From an archaeon (lineage in GTDB: Archaea; B1Sed10-29; JAJSAI01): a stretch of 39,602 nucleotides of DNA. Below are positions 15,291 to 21,459 of this stretch, in pieces (the stretch's first letter is position 1; each line of letters opens with the position of its first letter). Position numbers and translations under genes: made by a program. The DNA lies in NCBI GenBank assembly GCA_024274695.1, contig JAJSAI010000029.1, positions 1-39,602 on the forward strand, given 5' to 3'. A model generated the notes under the pieces. The model ran no database searches, was not told the DNA's origin, and saw nothing but the letters and a program-made list of their open reading frames with translations.

Positions 15291-16457
15291 TCACTGGCTG
15301 TTGAGAAGGCTCTTGTTTTCTTCAATTATTTCCAAGAACGCGTTTATAACCTTTTCCAGCTCCTCTTTTTTCAGGCCGTAAGTGCTGAGTTTGAACTGTC
15401 TAGTCAGGCCAGGCTTTATTCCTGAGATGCCCCTTTTCTTGAGCCCATGGTACAAGAAGAATCCTCTTTTCTTGTGATCTTGGGCTATCTCGTACAGTTT
15501 CTCTGATACGAAGAACAGGAGATCATGGTTATGGGGTTTTTCCCCGTACTGTTCTGCGATTCCCTCTTTTTCCATCATTGAAGAGAACCATCTCGCGTTC
15601 TCAACCTCCTCTTCCCAGCGTTTGATCCTTTCCTGGACGTACGGGAAGGACAGCATCAGAGACACCGCAGGCATTCCTCTTACCGTGCACCCCAGCATTT
15701 CAACTTCCTTGATGGGGTAGTACCTTGATTTCCTGAAAAGGTTTTCAGCGTGTTCCTCTGTTGTTCCTAGCACGCCAACAGGGCCGCTCGCTGCCATGCT
15801 CTTGTGCCCGGATCCCACGATAAAGTCAGCGCCCAGTTCCCTCATGCTCACAGGCATCCTGCCCACGGCGTAGGCCGCGTTTAGGATGAGCGGCACGCCG
15901 TGCTTGTGGCACTCGCTGGCGATTTTCTTGACATTGGGCATGTTCCCGTAGTTCCCGTCAGGGTAGGTGACCAGCGCAAGAGCGGGAGGGTTTCCTGTTT
16001 CGTCTTCCACTTCCTCTATTGCGTTCTTGTAGTGCTCTGGCGTGATCAGGTACTCTGGCTCAGGAGTCCTCTCTGTTTTCTTGATGTTGAGCCCAGCTCT
16101 CTCCGCAGCCACAATGCTGGAGTAGTGGGCGTTAGCGTCAATGACTATCCAGTCCCCGGGCCTGGCGGCCGCGTGCATTATCGCATACTTGCCCTCTCTT
16201 GCCCCGTGGGTTATTCTCGCCTGGTCACAGCCCAGGAACTCTGGCAGGATCTCTTCTATGAACAGTTTTATCGGAGGAGTCTTCAAGCCGAACAGGCTTC
16301 CTGGACAGAAATCGCAGACAGAGTAACCGTCAAGCCATGTGACCAAGTTGGCCTTAGTGGCCTCAGGAATCCGTCCTCCTGTCTGAAGAGGATCTATGTT
16401 TATCTCGTGCGTTTCTCTTGTAATGTTCCTGAGCTTGTCCAGGTTCATGACTCTCAT
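15291..16457 (-). CDS. pscS: Sep-tRNA:Cys-tRNA synthase (SepCysS)
   Basis: [18 protein letters not shown] (CxxC), [33 protein letters not shown] (PLP Lys), LGCTVRG (third Cys), GIKPGLT, KLSTYG. Confidence 0.96.
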
Positions 16458-16474
16458 CCTTTAGAATAACTGTT

Positions 16475-16548
16475 TGGAGCGGGGAGGGAGATTTGAACTC
16501 CCGTACACCGGTCTGCAGCCGGTTGCATAGCCGCTCTGCCATCCCCGC
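16475..16548 (-). tRNA. tRNA-Cys(GCA), G37 isodecoder (SepRS-type)
   Basis: GCGGGGA TG GCAG AGCGGCTA TGC A ACCGG CT GCA GA CCGGT GTAC GGGAG TTCAAAT CTCCC TCCCCGC T CCA; anticodon at 16514-16516; G37; U73; CCA encoded. Confidence 0.96.
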
Positions 16549-16590
16549 AGAGGCTTTTTCTGGGACAAGGTTAATTTTGAAGGGCAGGTT

Positions 16591-17613
16591 TTAAAAGGGT
16601 TTCGAGAGAGCTCTTGCAAGGTTTTCCACGAACTTTTCCCTGTACCTTCTGGGCACGTTCGTCCCGTACGCTCCGGGGTGTCCTCCGTGGACCGCTCCCG
16701 GGATCCCTTTGACTGCCTCGGGCACTATTCTTGTCAGGTCCGGTCCAGGGCTTCTGGTGGAGAAGCTTGCTTCTTCCTCCTCGTCAACACTCACGGTCAC
16801 CACTTTGCCCGGGTGCTTTAGCCTGAGGTAGTCCACGAGCAGTCTTTTTATCCTGTACTTTGTTTTTCCCGCGTGGACGTACACCAACCTGGCATCTTTC
16901 CACGTCTTCTCTTTACACTCTCTTATGACGCGCAGTGTTTCTTCTTCTGCCTCGTCTATTATCCGGTACAAGTGTTTCGCTTTGCCGTGTTTTTCTGTCC
17001 ACGCGTGCAGAGGATCCTCTTTTTCAATGCTTTCTATCATGATTTTGAGTATGTCTTCGGATACATCCTTCTGGAGGTATCCTGCCAGGAAGAGGAGGGT
17101 TGTCCTGGTGAGGGCTGGGTCCAGTTGTCCGCCTATTAGGTATGTTCTTTTTTCCTGGGGCGTGAGCTTTATCAGCGGCAGAGACTCTTCCAGCATCCTG
17201 TCAGAGTACGATCCGAGCAGGGCGACCCACTTGAGGTTCTTTTCTCCACCCGCTTTCTCGTACAGCCGGTAGCACAGCGCGCTACAGCTGGGCACGCTGC
17301 TCGTTTCAAACGCAGGGTTTACGAACGGGCATTCTGGTTTCTCCTTTCTCTTATGATGGTCTATTATGAGTATCCTTTCATCTTTTGGCACTCTCGGGGG
17401 AGAGACGTCTGTCATTATCACCTTATCATAACCTTCAAGTCCAGTGATGTCCTTCATCACGTTGGTGATTTTCACGTCAGGCTCTACTCCCCTCTCTTTC
17501 ATGAGTGTGTAGACTATCGCTCCTGAGCAGAGTCCGTCGCCGTCGTTGTGGGTTATGAGGAGGGTCTTGTCAGAGCTTTTTATTGCTTTCAGGAACCTGA
17601 CTGCCTCGTCCAT
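16591..17613 (-). CDS. DHH/DHHA1 phosphoesterase (RecJ-like)
   Basis: THNDGDGLCS, MTD, IIDHH, SD, HGGHPGAYG. Confidence 0.88.
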   Translation of the reverse strand: MDEAVRFLKAIKSSDKTLLITHNDGDGLCSGAIVYTLMKERGVEPDVKITNVMKDITGLEGYDKVIMTDVSPPRVPKDERILIIDHHKRKEKPECPFVNPAFETSSVPSCSALCYRLYEKAGGEKNLKWVALLGSYSDRMLEESLPLIKLTPQEKRTYLIGGQLDPALTRTTLLFLAGYLQKDVSEDILKIMIESIEKEDPLHAWTEKHGKAKHLYRIIDEAEEETLRVIRECKEKTWKDARLVYVHAGKTKYRIKRLLVDYLRLKHPGKVVTVSVDEEEEASFSTRSPGPDLTRIVPEAVKGIPGAVHGGHPGAYGTNVPRRYREKFVENLARALSKPF

Positions 17614-19968: not shown

Positions 19969-19972
19969 GCGC

Positions 19973-21352
19973 TCACCTTATTCTCCACAACGTGCCGAAC
20001 CGTGTGTCCTTTACGTCCAGTCCCGCGTTCCTGAGGGTGTCCCTGATCTTGTCCGCTTTTTCGTAGTCTCCTGCTTTTCTTGCTTTGTCCCTTTCCACGA
20101 GCAGCCAGCCGACGATGCTTGAAATAACCCTGTCCCTGTCAACGCTTCTGGGCAGGATTCCGAGAATCGTTCCAGCTGTCCAAACGAACTCCTTCAAGGC
20201 TTTTTTGCTCTCCTGGTCCAGGCCTCCCTCGTCTTCGGTGAGACTGTTGGCCTTTTTAAGCGTTTGTATTAGTACTGAGACTGCCTTGGGAGTGTTCAGA
20301 TCGTCGTCCAGCGCTTTTTCAAATTCATTCATCGCGTTCCTTACTTCGTCAACCATCCTCGCGCTCCCTTTTCCTGCTTCCACCAGGATCAGAGAGTCAT
20401 ATATGTAAGACAGTGTTTCCTCCGCTTGCTTGAGCCCTTTTTCTGAATAGTCCATTTCTGACCTGTAGTGCGACATGGCGAAGTACAGTCTCAGGGCTTC
20501 AGGCCGGTGGTTTTCAAGCACGCTTCGGATGGTCACGAAGTTGCCGAGTGACTTGGACATCTTCCTGCCTTCCACCAGCAGGAGACCAGTGTGGACCCAG
20601 TACTTCACCAGCGGTTTTTTGCCAGTGTATGCTTCAGCCTGGGCTATTTCTGCTTCGTGATGCGGGAATGCTAGTTCTATCGCTCCCCCGTGAATATCGT
20701 ACTGGGGACCGAAGTAGGTTACTGTTATTGCGGTGTCCTCAATGTGCCATCCTGGCCTGCCCCTGCCCCAGGGAGAGTCCCATGATATTTCTTCTTCTTT
20801 CCTTTTCCAGAGTGCGAAATCAGCAGGATTCCTCTTTTCTGGGTCAGGTTCTATCCTGTGGACGTTCATTTCCTCTGGTTTTTTTCTCCCGAGCTTTCCG
20901 TAGTCCGGGAACCTGCTCACGTCGTAGTATACATTGCCTGACTTGGTCACGTACGCGTACCCTTTTTTAAGAAGCCCCTCCACCTGCTCTATTATTTCTG
21001 GGATGTGTTCTGATGCCCTTGGAAAAAGGTTTACTGAGTTGATGTTCAAGGCTTTCATGTCCTTCATGAACTCTTTTTCGTATTTCCGGGCGAGGTCAAG
21101 AGGCTTTATTCCTTGCTCTCGGGCCCGTTTTATTATCTTATCATCAACGTCAGTGATATTCATCACGTAGAATACTGTGTGTCCCTTGTGCCTAAGGTAC
21201 TTTGCCAGGGTGTCGTAGTACGAGTACGTCCTAGCATGCCCCACGTGACTGTAGTCGTATACTGTGGGACCGCACACGAACATGTTCACCCTCCCGGGGT
21301 GGATTGGCACGAACTCTTCCTTTTGTCTTGTGAGCGTGTTATACAACCGCAT
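19973..21352 (-). CDS. cysS: Cysteinyl-tRNA synthetase (class I)
   Basis: [13 protein letters not shown] (HIGH), [55 protein letters not shown]. Confidence 0.96.
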
Positions 21353-21384
21353 CCTTGACCAACTCCTTAGCAGCAGACGGGGAA

Positions 21385-21459
21385 TGGAGGAGGGGTCGGG
21401 ATTTGAACCCGAGTAAAACCGCTTTGCAGGCGGTCACATGGCCACTCTGTCACCCCTCC
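21385..21459 (-). tRNA. tRNA-Cys(GCA), A37 isodecoder (CysRS-linked)
   Basis: GGAGGGG TG ACAG AGTGGCCA TGT G ACCGC CT GCA AA GCGGT TTTAC TCGGG TTCAAAT CCCGA CCCCTCC T CCA; anticodon at 21425-21427; A37; U73; CCA encoded. Confidence 0.96.

Follow-up and report, generated by a model that had tools for sequence, protein, structure and literature searches.

The cysteinyl-tRNA locus

The formation of Cys-tRNA is considered here in a stretch of archaeal DNA of 39,602 nucleotides (positions 1 to 39,602 of contig JAJSAI010000029.1, assembly GCA_024274695.1; hereafter the window), which belongs to a metagenome-assembled genome (MAG) of the Micrarchaeota (DPANN) that spans 825 kb in 32 contigs and is rated 91% complete. 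Among the four tRNA genes of the window, two are called by ARAGORN as tRNA-Cys(gca). The first, a tRNA-Cys(GCA) with G at position 37 (16475..16548, minus strand; ARAGORN, Rfam RF00005), stands upstream of pscS, the gene for a SepCysS of 388 residues (15291..16457, minus strand; TIGR02539). The second, with A at position 37 (21385..21459, minus strand; ARAGORN, Rfam RF00005), precedes cysS, which encodes a CysRS of 459 residues (19973..21352, minus strand; TIGR00435, Pfam). The gene sepS, for a SepRS of 531 residues (7806..9401; TIGR00470), lies on the plus strand of the same contig.

SepRS, SepCysS and CysRS are likewise encoded on a single contig in a sister species of the same genus, represented by an independent MAG (G001; the source genome is G000), whose proteins are 80% (SepCysS), 77% (CysRS) and 76% (SepRS) identical to those of the source genome. 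The sister contig reads, in order, ribonucleotide reductase, a winged-helix gene, tRNA-Cys(A37), cysS, desulfoferrodoxin, tRNA-Cys(G37), an open reading frame (ORF) on the opposite strand, pscS and tRNA-Ala(CGC), with SepRS a few kilobases further on. Throughout the genus, all the components of Cys-tRNA formation are found within 9-14 kb of one another.

Two divergent tRNA-Cys isodecoders

The initial annotation of this region, made from the sequence alone, had described the two tRNAs in some detail, and that description holds wherever it could be checked. Both genes are tRNA-Cys(gca) according to ARAGORN and score 58.7 bits (G37) and 57.8 bits (A37) with Rfam RF00005, against a gathering score of 29. 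The reported count of about 21 differences plus one indel is matched by an alignment of 75 columns, of which 53 are identical, 21 are mismatched and one is an indel, and the compensatory nature of the stem changes is borne out by the cloverleaf parse, in which 8 of the 21 stem pairs differ, each with both of its bases changed. As described, the G37 tRNA has a C2-G71 pair, a variable loop of 4 nt and a 3′ end 17 nt before the pscS ATG at 16457, and the A37 tRNA a G2-C71 pair, a variable loop of 5 nt and a 3′ end 32 nt before the cysS ATG at 21352. Pair 10:25 is G10-C25 in the former and A10-U25 in the latter. Common to both are the GCA anticodon, U73, G15, the G13/A22 mismatch and an encoded CCA, and a third tRNA-Cys was not found in the 825-kb assembly. 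The spacers ending in AAGG-ATG, also pointed out at the outset, are indeed present on both sides in the source genome but do not recur in the sister species, and an AAGG that directly abuts the ATG sits at a poor distance for a ribosome-binding site.

Both tRNA-Cys genes are under strong purifying selection, because the A37 tRNA is identical at 73 of 75 nt between the two species, and the exons of the G37 tRNA at 69 of 71 nt, against only 28% identity (40/143) at the 4-fold degenerate sites of cysS. The spacers between tRNA-Cys(A37) and cysS, of 32 nt in the source genome and 25 nt in the sister, show no evident similarity. The G37 ortholog of the sister (L004 391-493) is interrupted at 37/38 by an intron of about 30 nt and has no encoded CCA, and the gene of the source genome is intron-free and has one; ARAGORN miscalls the sister gene as tRNA-Gly or tRNA-Arg.

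Position 37 sets the cysS-linked tRNA apart from the rest of the tRNA set, since it is the sole tRNA of the genome in which A36 is followed by A37; the other A36 tRNAs (Phe, Leu with UAA and CAA, Ser with UGA and GGA, and Trp) all carry G37. A homolog of Trm5 is encoded (160 bits), through which the G37 of tRNA-Cys(G37) would be converted to 1-methylguanosine (m1G37). MiaA/IPPT was not found in the 91%-complete assembly, and A37 is for this reason probably unmodified. The methylated base m1G37 has a general role in tRNA, and its loss is unlikely to have been cost-free, because no other A36 tRNA of the genome has A37 and MiaA was not found.

Position 37 across the phylum and the origin of A37

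The tRNA-Cys genes of 41 genomes were searched with a covariance model built from 13 tRNA-Cys genes, whose tRNA-Cys matches stood clearly apart from other tRNAs; 20 borderline matches were checked, of which 18 were other tRNAs and two (G008, G009) were intron-bearing tRNA-Cys read by eye. The search recovered a tRNA-Cys from 23 of the 30 phylum genomes other than the source; in G002, G006, G011, G016, G025, G028 and G030 it identified none. Outside the genus, position 37 is G in all 22 phylum genomes with a tRNA-Cys, the calls for G015 and G009 depending on where the intron is placed. Those relatives that have CysRS as their only route carry G37 in 21 out of 21 cases, together with U73 wherever the 3′ end could be read. 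Two tRNA-Cys genes occur only in the source genome and its sister, and A37 only in their cysS-linked copy. The same two genomes are the only ones, among the 31 of the phylum, with SepCysS and SepRS above the cut-off. It is therefore a supported conclusion that, within the phylum, the base at position 37 goes with the presence of SepRS. The initial proposal that A37 goes with CysRS thus stands for the cysS-linked copy of the SepRS-bearing genus and fails for the CysRS-only relatives, which keep G37.

Degenerate SepRS-like genes, or a C-terminal piece of one, are present in five genomes of one family of the phylum and in one of another, and genes of this kind were described by Mukai 2022. In one of these genomes (G018:C26:72575-77521), a degenerate SepRS-like gene (329 bits, below the cut-off) divergently adjoins tRNA-Cys and cysS; SepCysS was not found in this genome.

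As for ancestry, the nearest sequence to tRNA-Cys(A37) is the cysS-linked tRNA of G015, a member of the same order (79%), and the nearest to tRNA-Cys(G37) are the tRNA-Cys of the phylum relatives G019, G021 and G027 (82-83%). The first of these relationships led us to reject the A37 tRNA as an import of bacterial type. A methanogen source for the G37 tRNA, acquired along with SepCysS, was also rejected for now: the canonical methanogen tRNA-Cys compared are not among its 14 nearest sequences, in a comparison of 71 nt with low resolution. Since its nearest relative is a cysS-linked tRNA of the same order, A37 is the derived state of the own cysS-linked tRNA of the lineage, with a single base change as the simplest origin. 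The intron of the G015 gene (L042 976-1106) can be removed in two registers: the canonical 37/38 splice, which is supported by a 3-nt bulge by the anticodon stem, yields G37, and the splice called by ARAGORN yields A37. Imprecise loss of such an intron in a G015-like ancestor could be one origin of A37.

An old tRNA-Cys-cysS cassette and a loose tRNA-Cys-pscS adjacency

The region had been read at first as two parallel cassettes, each with its own tRNA co-transcribed with an enzyme of the pathway, and a synteny survey was run on both sides. The cysS side of that proposal is widespread and conserved; the pscS side is not.

Of the 30 other genomes of the phylum, 27 yielded a CysRS. A tRNA-Cys lies on the same strand at most 60 nt upstream of cysS in seven of the 30 (G001, G004, G005, G009, G012, G013, G029), and at 61-700 nt upstream in seven more (G003, G008, G010, G014, G015, G017, G018). 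A second sample comprised 71 genomes of the methanogen class that contains Methanothrix, all of which (71/71) have SepRS. A cysS match at E<=1e-40 is present in 42 of them (38 above the cut-off), and in 21 of these 42 a tRNA-Cys ends 1-60 nt upstream of cysS. In the 11 genomes of the Methanothrix type (e.g., L212 1428-1503; L223-L232), a tRNA-Cys with C73 and A10-U25 ends 1-5 nt before the cysS ATG, so that a cysS message with hardly any leader would result from processing at the 3′ end of the tRNA. In one genome (G076), a second copy of the C73 tRNA-Cys stands ahead of a cysS fragment with three stop codons. The tRNA-Cys-cysS unit is, therefore, an old and widespread archaeal cassette, and its layout strongly suggests co-transcription of the two genes. 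In the window, tRNA-Cys(A37) is almost certainly co-transcribed with cysS, judging from a spacer that leaves no room for a promoter and from a layout conserved in the relatives.

This unit would begin with a small winged-helix gene of 72 residues (21450..21668, minus strand; Pfam HTH_24/HTH_5/MarR_2, of the ArsR/MarR type, E 3e-6 to 8e-5), whose TGA falls inside the first 10 nt of tRNA-Cys(A37); the last two codons and the stop codon lie within the 5′ acceptor strand of the tRNA, and RNase P cleavage would therefore leave a winged-helix message without a stop. The homolog in the sister species is 47% identical and overlaps the tRNA in the same way. By sequence reading, an A/T-rich box, AACAATTAAAAACC (21706..21719, minus strand), is a candidate archaeal TATA element upstream of the winged-helix-tRNA-cysS unit and would act as its promoter; the sister has an A/T-rich box, AAAGTTTAAAAAC, at the same place. 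In G005, a weaker winged-helix homolog stands just ahead of the tRNA-Cys-cysS pair, and in a Methanothrix genome another comes just after cysS (L212 3133-3273).

The linkage of tRNA-Cys(G37) with pscS is of a different kind. In the sister species, pscS follows the tRNA only after about 1 kb, with an ORF of about 315 residues on the opposite strand between them and a TATA-like box directly before pscS. Among 79 pscS loci of other organisms (with flanks of at most 4 kb, some of them ended by contig edges), a tRNA-Cys directly upstream of pscS was not found in any (0/79), and in one of them a tRNA-Cys lies 1.6 kb downstream. In the genome G034, a tRNA-Cys follows pscS by 33 nt within a compact cluster of SepRS, tRNA-Cys and pscS. 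Two A/T-rich boxes upstream of tRNA-Cys(G37), CCTTTTAAAA and CAAAATTAA, form a candidate promoter by sequence reading (16571..16598, minus strand); both are conserved upstream of the ortholog in the sister, despite a different upstream gene, and would represent the own promoter of this tRNA. With only 17 nt between tRNA-Cys(G37) and the ATG, pscS in the source genome is most likely transcribed by read-through from the promoter of this tRNA.

SepRS, SepCysS, CysRS and the supply of cysteine

The SepCysS of the window reaches 545.1 bits with TIGR02539 (cut-off 365.25) over profile positions 5-370 of 370, and its predicted activity is the conversion of Sep-tRNA to Cys-tRNA; its best match outside the genus is in Methanothrix/Methanosarcinales, at about 61%. 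The SepRS reaches 473 bits with TIGR00470 (cut-off 380.65), against 700-780 bits for methanogen SepRS on the same family model, and matches solved SepRS structures with an E of 5e-114. In the alignment to 2du3, its anticodon-binding domain has Leu opposite Ile444 of Archaeoglobus fulgidus and keeps the following segment without deletion. According to the part of the report available (PMC5424206), a hydrophobic residue at Ile444 and the helix that follows are tied to m1G37 recognition and were lost in bacterial SepRS, the contact of Ile444 with the methyl group of m1G37 being a model of its authors. By its sequence, the enzyme is thus an archaeal SepRS in which the m1G37-associated motif is retained. 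Its overall identity with the degenerate SepRS-like gene of G018 is 32%, the anticodon-binding segments of the two being similar, and it may or may not be a recent import.

The CysRS scores 498.9 bits with TIGR00435 (cut-off 340) and has the Pfam domains tRNA-synt_1e (394 bits), DALR_2 and CysS_C. In a quick tree, it falls in a clade with phylum relatives of three families (f2, f5, f10) and the Methanothrix type (SH-aLRT 98), where the proteins of the genus adjoin the Methanothrix type (support 91).

The only gene of the PALP fold found in the assembly is ThrC-like (TIGR00260, 213 bits; G000:C20:38038-38922). A cysteine synthase of the cysK/cysM type was not found in the 91%-complete assembly, and the tRNA-dependent route may for this reason be the sole way of the organism to make cysteine. 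A match to 2-hydroxyacid dehydrogenase (SerA-like) above the cut-off was not found in the assembly either.

Divergent tRNA-Cys in dual-pathway methanogens

In the sample of the methanogen class, the cysS-linked tRNA-Cys is likewise a divergent isodecoder, in every case. It combines C73 with G37 in 11 genomes and has A73 in 10, where position 37 is G in seven and A in three (G065, G081, G087). The unlinked tRNA-Cys, nine genes from 7 of the 21 genomes with the cassette, are all G37/U73. Methanosarcina-type genomes have, in the four cases examined (G043, G055, G077, G105), a divergent A37 isodecoder with the loop CUGCAAC (A37, C38) beside canonical G37 copies. In Methanosarcina sp. T3 (G043), this isodecoder does not adjoin cysS; it lies (L210 1501-1572, minus strand) 29 nt upstream of the gene for a pyridoxal-phosphate enzyme of Cys/Met metabolism of 441 residues (PF01053). 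Taken together, about four origins of A37 can be counted, three of them in dual-pathway genomes, a suggestive figure in which related genomes are not independent samples. A further oddity is found in G083, G105, G055 and G103, whose tRNA-Cys-like genes have A33 (loop CAGCAGA) in place of the near-universal U33 and are otherwise like canonical methanogen tRNA-Cys.

A proposed one-sided partition of the two tRNAs

The reading that we favour, and to which we would give an even chance, is a one-sided partition in which SepRS prefers the G37 tRNA, the A37 tRNA is a poor substrate for SepRS, and CysRS charges both. The winged-helix-tRNA-cysS unit would be transcribed as a whole, and 3′ processing of the tRNA would release the cysS message; on the other side, transcripts from the promoter of tRNA-Cys(G37) would read through into pscS, which would be freed by processing of the tRNA. 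SepRS would prefer the G37 tRNA methylated by Trm5 and charge the A37 tRNA poorly, and CysRS would accept either; G37 is the base for which the indirect route reportedly has a preference. The A37 tRNA would then provide a pool for direct charging that is not tied up as phosphoseryl-tRNA, and the G37 tRNA a scaffold for tRNA-dependent cysteine synthesis. Because every CysRS-only relative uses G37, the G37 tRNA is very probably a substrate of the CysRS of this lineage too, which would make the partition one-sided at best. Since dual-pathway methanogens also have divergent cysS-linked isodecoders, a partial insulation of the CysRS tRNA from SepRS is plausible.

Several observations weigh against this reading, and some of them would equally be expected of two redundant isodecoders without any partition, charged about equally by both enzymes, with A37 being tolerated. 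In that case, the presence of a second, G37 gene would have freed position 37 of the cysS-linked copy, and the CysRS would be of a type that does not need G37; we regard this alternative as possible but rather doubtful. In its favour, as far as the available text of PMC5424206 goes, the SepRS of Methanococcus maripaludis and two bacterial SepRSs charged A37, G37 and G37A transcripts of tRNA-Cys in vitro, so that A37 alone may discriminate weakly. An archaeal genome that is 99% complete (G033) has CysRS and an A37 tRNA-Cys, and SepRS is absent from it, which means that A37 can arise without SepRS. The alternation of G and A at position 37 among closely related A73-type tRNAs (7 vs 3) also fits a relaxed constraint. 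Besides, a crude search for substitutions specific to the genus, made at positions where 80% or more of 28 other CysRS sequences agree, returned six conservative changes, all in residues 86-226 within the catalytic half of CysRS, and none in the anticodon-binding domain; no change in acceptor binding was detected by it. Redundancy is harder to reconcile with an A37 tRNA that is kept at 73 of 75 nt between species with saturated silent sites, with the uniqueness of A37 among the A36 tRNAs of a genome where MiaA was not found, and with the divergence of the cysS-linked tRNA in three separate dual-pathway groups, when the CysRS-only relatives keep G37 (21/21) and U73 where it could be read.

The remaining points against the one-sided partition come from different sources. 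In the consulted part of the work on Methanosarcina mazei (PMC9976931, PMC3177210), m1G37 is reported as a determinant for CysRS too. The genome G037 has SepRS, SepCysS and CysRS, yet a single tRNA-Cys was found in it, with G37; a pattern search for an A37 tRNA-Cys in the phylum of this genome covered two genomes, and its one match was not a tRNA. The source genome and its sister count as a single evolutionary event. Finally, the tRNA-Cys(G37)-pscS cassette of the initial annotation does not withstand comparison, its two members being about 1 kb apart in the sister, and none of the 79 other pscS loci having a tRNA-Cys directly upstream.

Full mutual orthogonality goes further and would have SepRS act only on the G37 tRNA and CysRS only on the A37 tRNA, each tRNA being made along with its own enzyme. 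The 21 differences between the tRNAs, which include 2:71, 3:70, 10:25, 26, 37 and the length of the variable loop, speak for such a separation, as does the position of each tRNA next to one enzyme gene in the source genome, and orthogonality has been suggested for position-73 variants of methanogens in the accessible portion of PMC8762117. Nevertheless, both tRNAs possess GCA, U73 and G15, which are major determinants for both enzymes (PMC9976931). The CysRS-only relatives must use a G37/U73 tRNA, as no other tRNA-Cys was found in them, and three of these relatives (G019, G021, G027) have a tRNA-Cys 82-83% identical to the G37 tRNA and a CysRS 48-49% identical to that of the source genome, in the same supported clade. 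The adjacency of tRNA-Cys(G37) and pscS is moreover missing in the sister and in 79 of the 79 other pscS loci, and we consider full orthogonality improbable.

A change from G to A at position 37 could instead serve decoding or modification, either by freeing the tRNA from Trm5 and S-adenosylmethionine or through the reading of UGY codons. A37 does remove the target of Trm5, and it would probably be left unmodified given that MiaA was not found; a link between S-adenosylmethionine-dependent m1G37 and sulfur metabolism is made in the part of PMC3177210 that was available. Since this explanation accounts neither for the restriction of A37 to the SepRS-bearing genus within the phylum nor for the position-73 changes in the cysS-linked tRNAs of other dual-pathway archaea, we give it little credence. 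A chimeric contig, a concern with any MAG, in which the Cys systems of two organisms had been joined, is next to impossible, because the independently assembled sister has the same gene set and order on one contig, the GC content is even across the window (0.50-0.55), and both tRNAs resemble the tRNA-Cys of relatives in the phylum.

Returning to the one-sided partition, a broader proposal can be made tentatively, although it may well prove wrong: dual-route archaea would have repeatedly insulated the tRNA-Cys co-transcribed with cysS from SepRS, and three lineages would have done so by different changes, C73 in the Methanothrix type, A73 with or without A37 in another group of methanogens, and A37 alone in this Micrarchaeota genus. 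Were this true, A37 alone, through loss of the m1G37 handle, would be a natural anti-determinant against archaeal SepRS. Likewise, where the 3′ end of the tRNA is 1-60 nt from the cysS ATG, tRNA processing would make the cysS message, which would couple the production of CysRS to that of its private tRNA.

Relation to known systems

The paired layout was initially thought to be undescribed, a claim that has to be withdrawn in that form: the isoacceptor preference of M. mazei, the orthogonality attributed to position 73 and an A37/G37 pair in one bin are already in print. In M. mazei, SepRS and CysRS are reported to favour different tRNA-Cys isoacceptors, with determinants in the tRNA core and m1G37 helping both enzymes (PMC9976931). 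The genus described here is of the same type in having SepRS/SepCysS plus CysRS and at least two distinct, selected tRNA-Cys genes in one archaeon, known in this case from the genes; unlike in Methanosarcina sp. T3, the A37 tRNA is linked to cysS, and the host is a DPANN genome of less than 1 Mb.

Methanogens that use SepRS have variants of tRNA-Cys at position 73, with a co-varying CysRS (Perona et al. 2018, according to the summary in PMC8762117). The resemblance lies in a divergent tRNA-Cys that may render the SepRS and CysRS systems orthogonal or preferential, but both tRNAs of the window keep U73, and the changed positions include base 37. A pair of A37 and G37 tRNA-Cys was assayed with SepRS from the ‘Ca. 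Parcubacteria’ bin DG_74_2 (PMC5424206), which also has two tRNA-Cys differing at position 37 in one SepRS-bearing genome. On what could be consulted of that report, the bin is bacterial, and its SepRS, in which the m1G37 motif is missing, charged both tRNAs, whereas the SepRS of the window is archaeal with the motif, and A37 is derived.

Operons of the form tRNA-Cys-SepCysSn-SepCysS-SepRS in Bathyarchaeota BA2, and the loci of clade VII SepCysS, are known from the accessible parts of Mukai 2017 and 2022. The source genome resembles them in the tRNA-Cys immediately beside pscS (16475-16548 by 15291-16457), and differs in that this adjacency is not conserved in the genus and that SepRS lies 6 kb off on the other strand. 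SepCysSn and SepCysE were not seen in the genus, in which no search was aimed at either. A tRNA-Cys with a CysRS gene of its own is also found in Desulfobacterales, where selC* stands beside cysS* and has been proposed as its private substrate (PMC7609411). The likeness is that the gene for a special tRNA-Cys adjoins one for CysRS; from the available portion of that source, selC* is bacterial, an 8/4 tRNA, and its partner a second, truncated CysRS without the anticodon-binding domain, unlike the single normal CysRS and the normal cloverleaves of the window.

Reports that could be consulted in part already include SepRS in Micrarchaeota, as well as tRNA-Cys in operons with SepCysS or SepRS (PMC5424206, PMC8762117, PMC9976931). 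No literature report was found of a switch to A37 in the cysS-linked tRNA of a DPANN archaeon, of the breadth of the tRNA-Cys-cysS cassette or of a winged-helix stop codon inside the tRNA, although Perona 2018, Hauenstein and Perona 2008 and supplements may cover some of this.

Two questions are still argued from a few methanogen enzymes: how dual-route cells avoid having their tRNA tied up as phosphoseryl-tRNA, and whether SepRS and CysRS are truly told apart by m1G37. The locus offers a minimal natural test case for them, with a single SepRS, a single CysRS and a pair of tRNAs in which the listed major determinants (GCA, U73, G15) are the same, and with A37 as a derived base whose ancestral state can be read from relatives. 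A tRNA-Cys ahead of cysS is common in archaea, and in all three of the dual-pathway groups examined it is divergent, which lends the published idea of orthogonal Cys systems a concrete, countable genomic signature. There is a practical side as well, given that SepRS/tRNA pairs are workhorses of genetic-code expansion, for which a natural single-base insulator would be of use.

Neighbouring genes

Between cysS and tRNA-Cys(G37), on the same strand, the window encodes a P-type metal ATPase (18034-19968), a desulfoferrodoxin (17648-18037) and a DHH/DHHA1 protein (16591-17613), all three assigned with Pfam and NCBIfam and with no evident role in Cys-tRNA formation (16591..19968, minus strand); the ATPase and the DHH gene are not in the corresponding interval of the sister. 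The tRNA-Ala(CGC) gene (15208..15283, minus strand; ARAGORN, Rfam) begins 7 nt past the pscS stop and occupies the same position in the sister species.

A ThiF/MoeB-family E1-like gene (7118..7825, plus strand) overlaps the start of sepS. It matches Pfam ThiF with 119 bits, and the NCBIfam ThiF/MoeB models all fall under their cut-offs; from its position, it is possible that it acts as a sulfur-relay partner of sepS. In a by-eye reading, ThiF-like N-termini were also seen in ORFs beside pscS of G031 and G037. The end of sepS is overlapped by an ORF of 181 residues (9398-9943, plus strand) with weak GNAT matches.

The interval between sepS and pscS (9944-14082, minus strand) contains IscU-like, class-V aminotransferase (IscS-like), class-III aminotransferase and SufS-like genes, which together with the Cys-tRNA genes make up a sulfur/cysteine island. 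Beyond them, an ORF of 339 residues (14167-15186, plus strand) combines a homing-endonuclease-associated repeat with short stretches like sigma-70 region 3 and IF2_N, and a homolog of this ORF is found at the matching position of the sister contig (L004 2878-3939).

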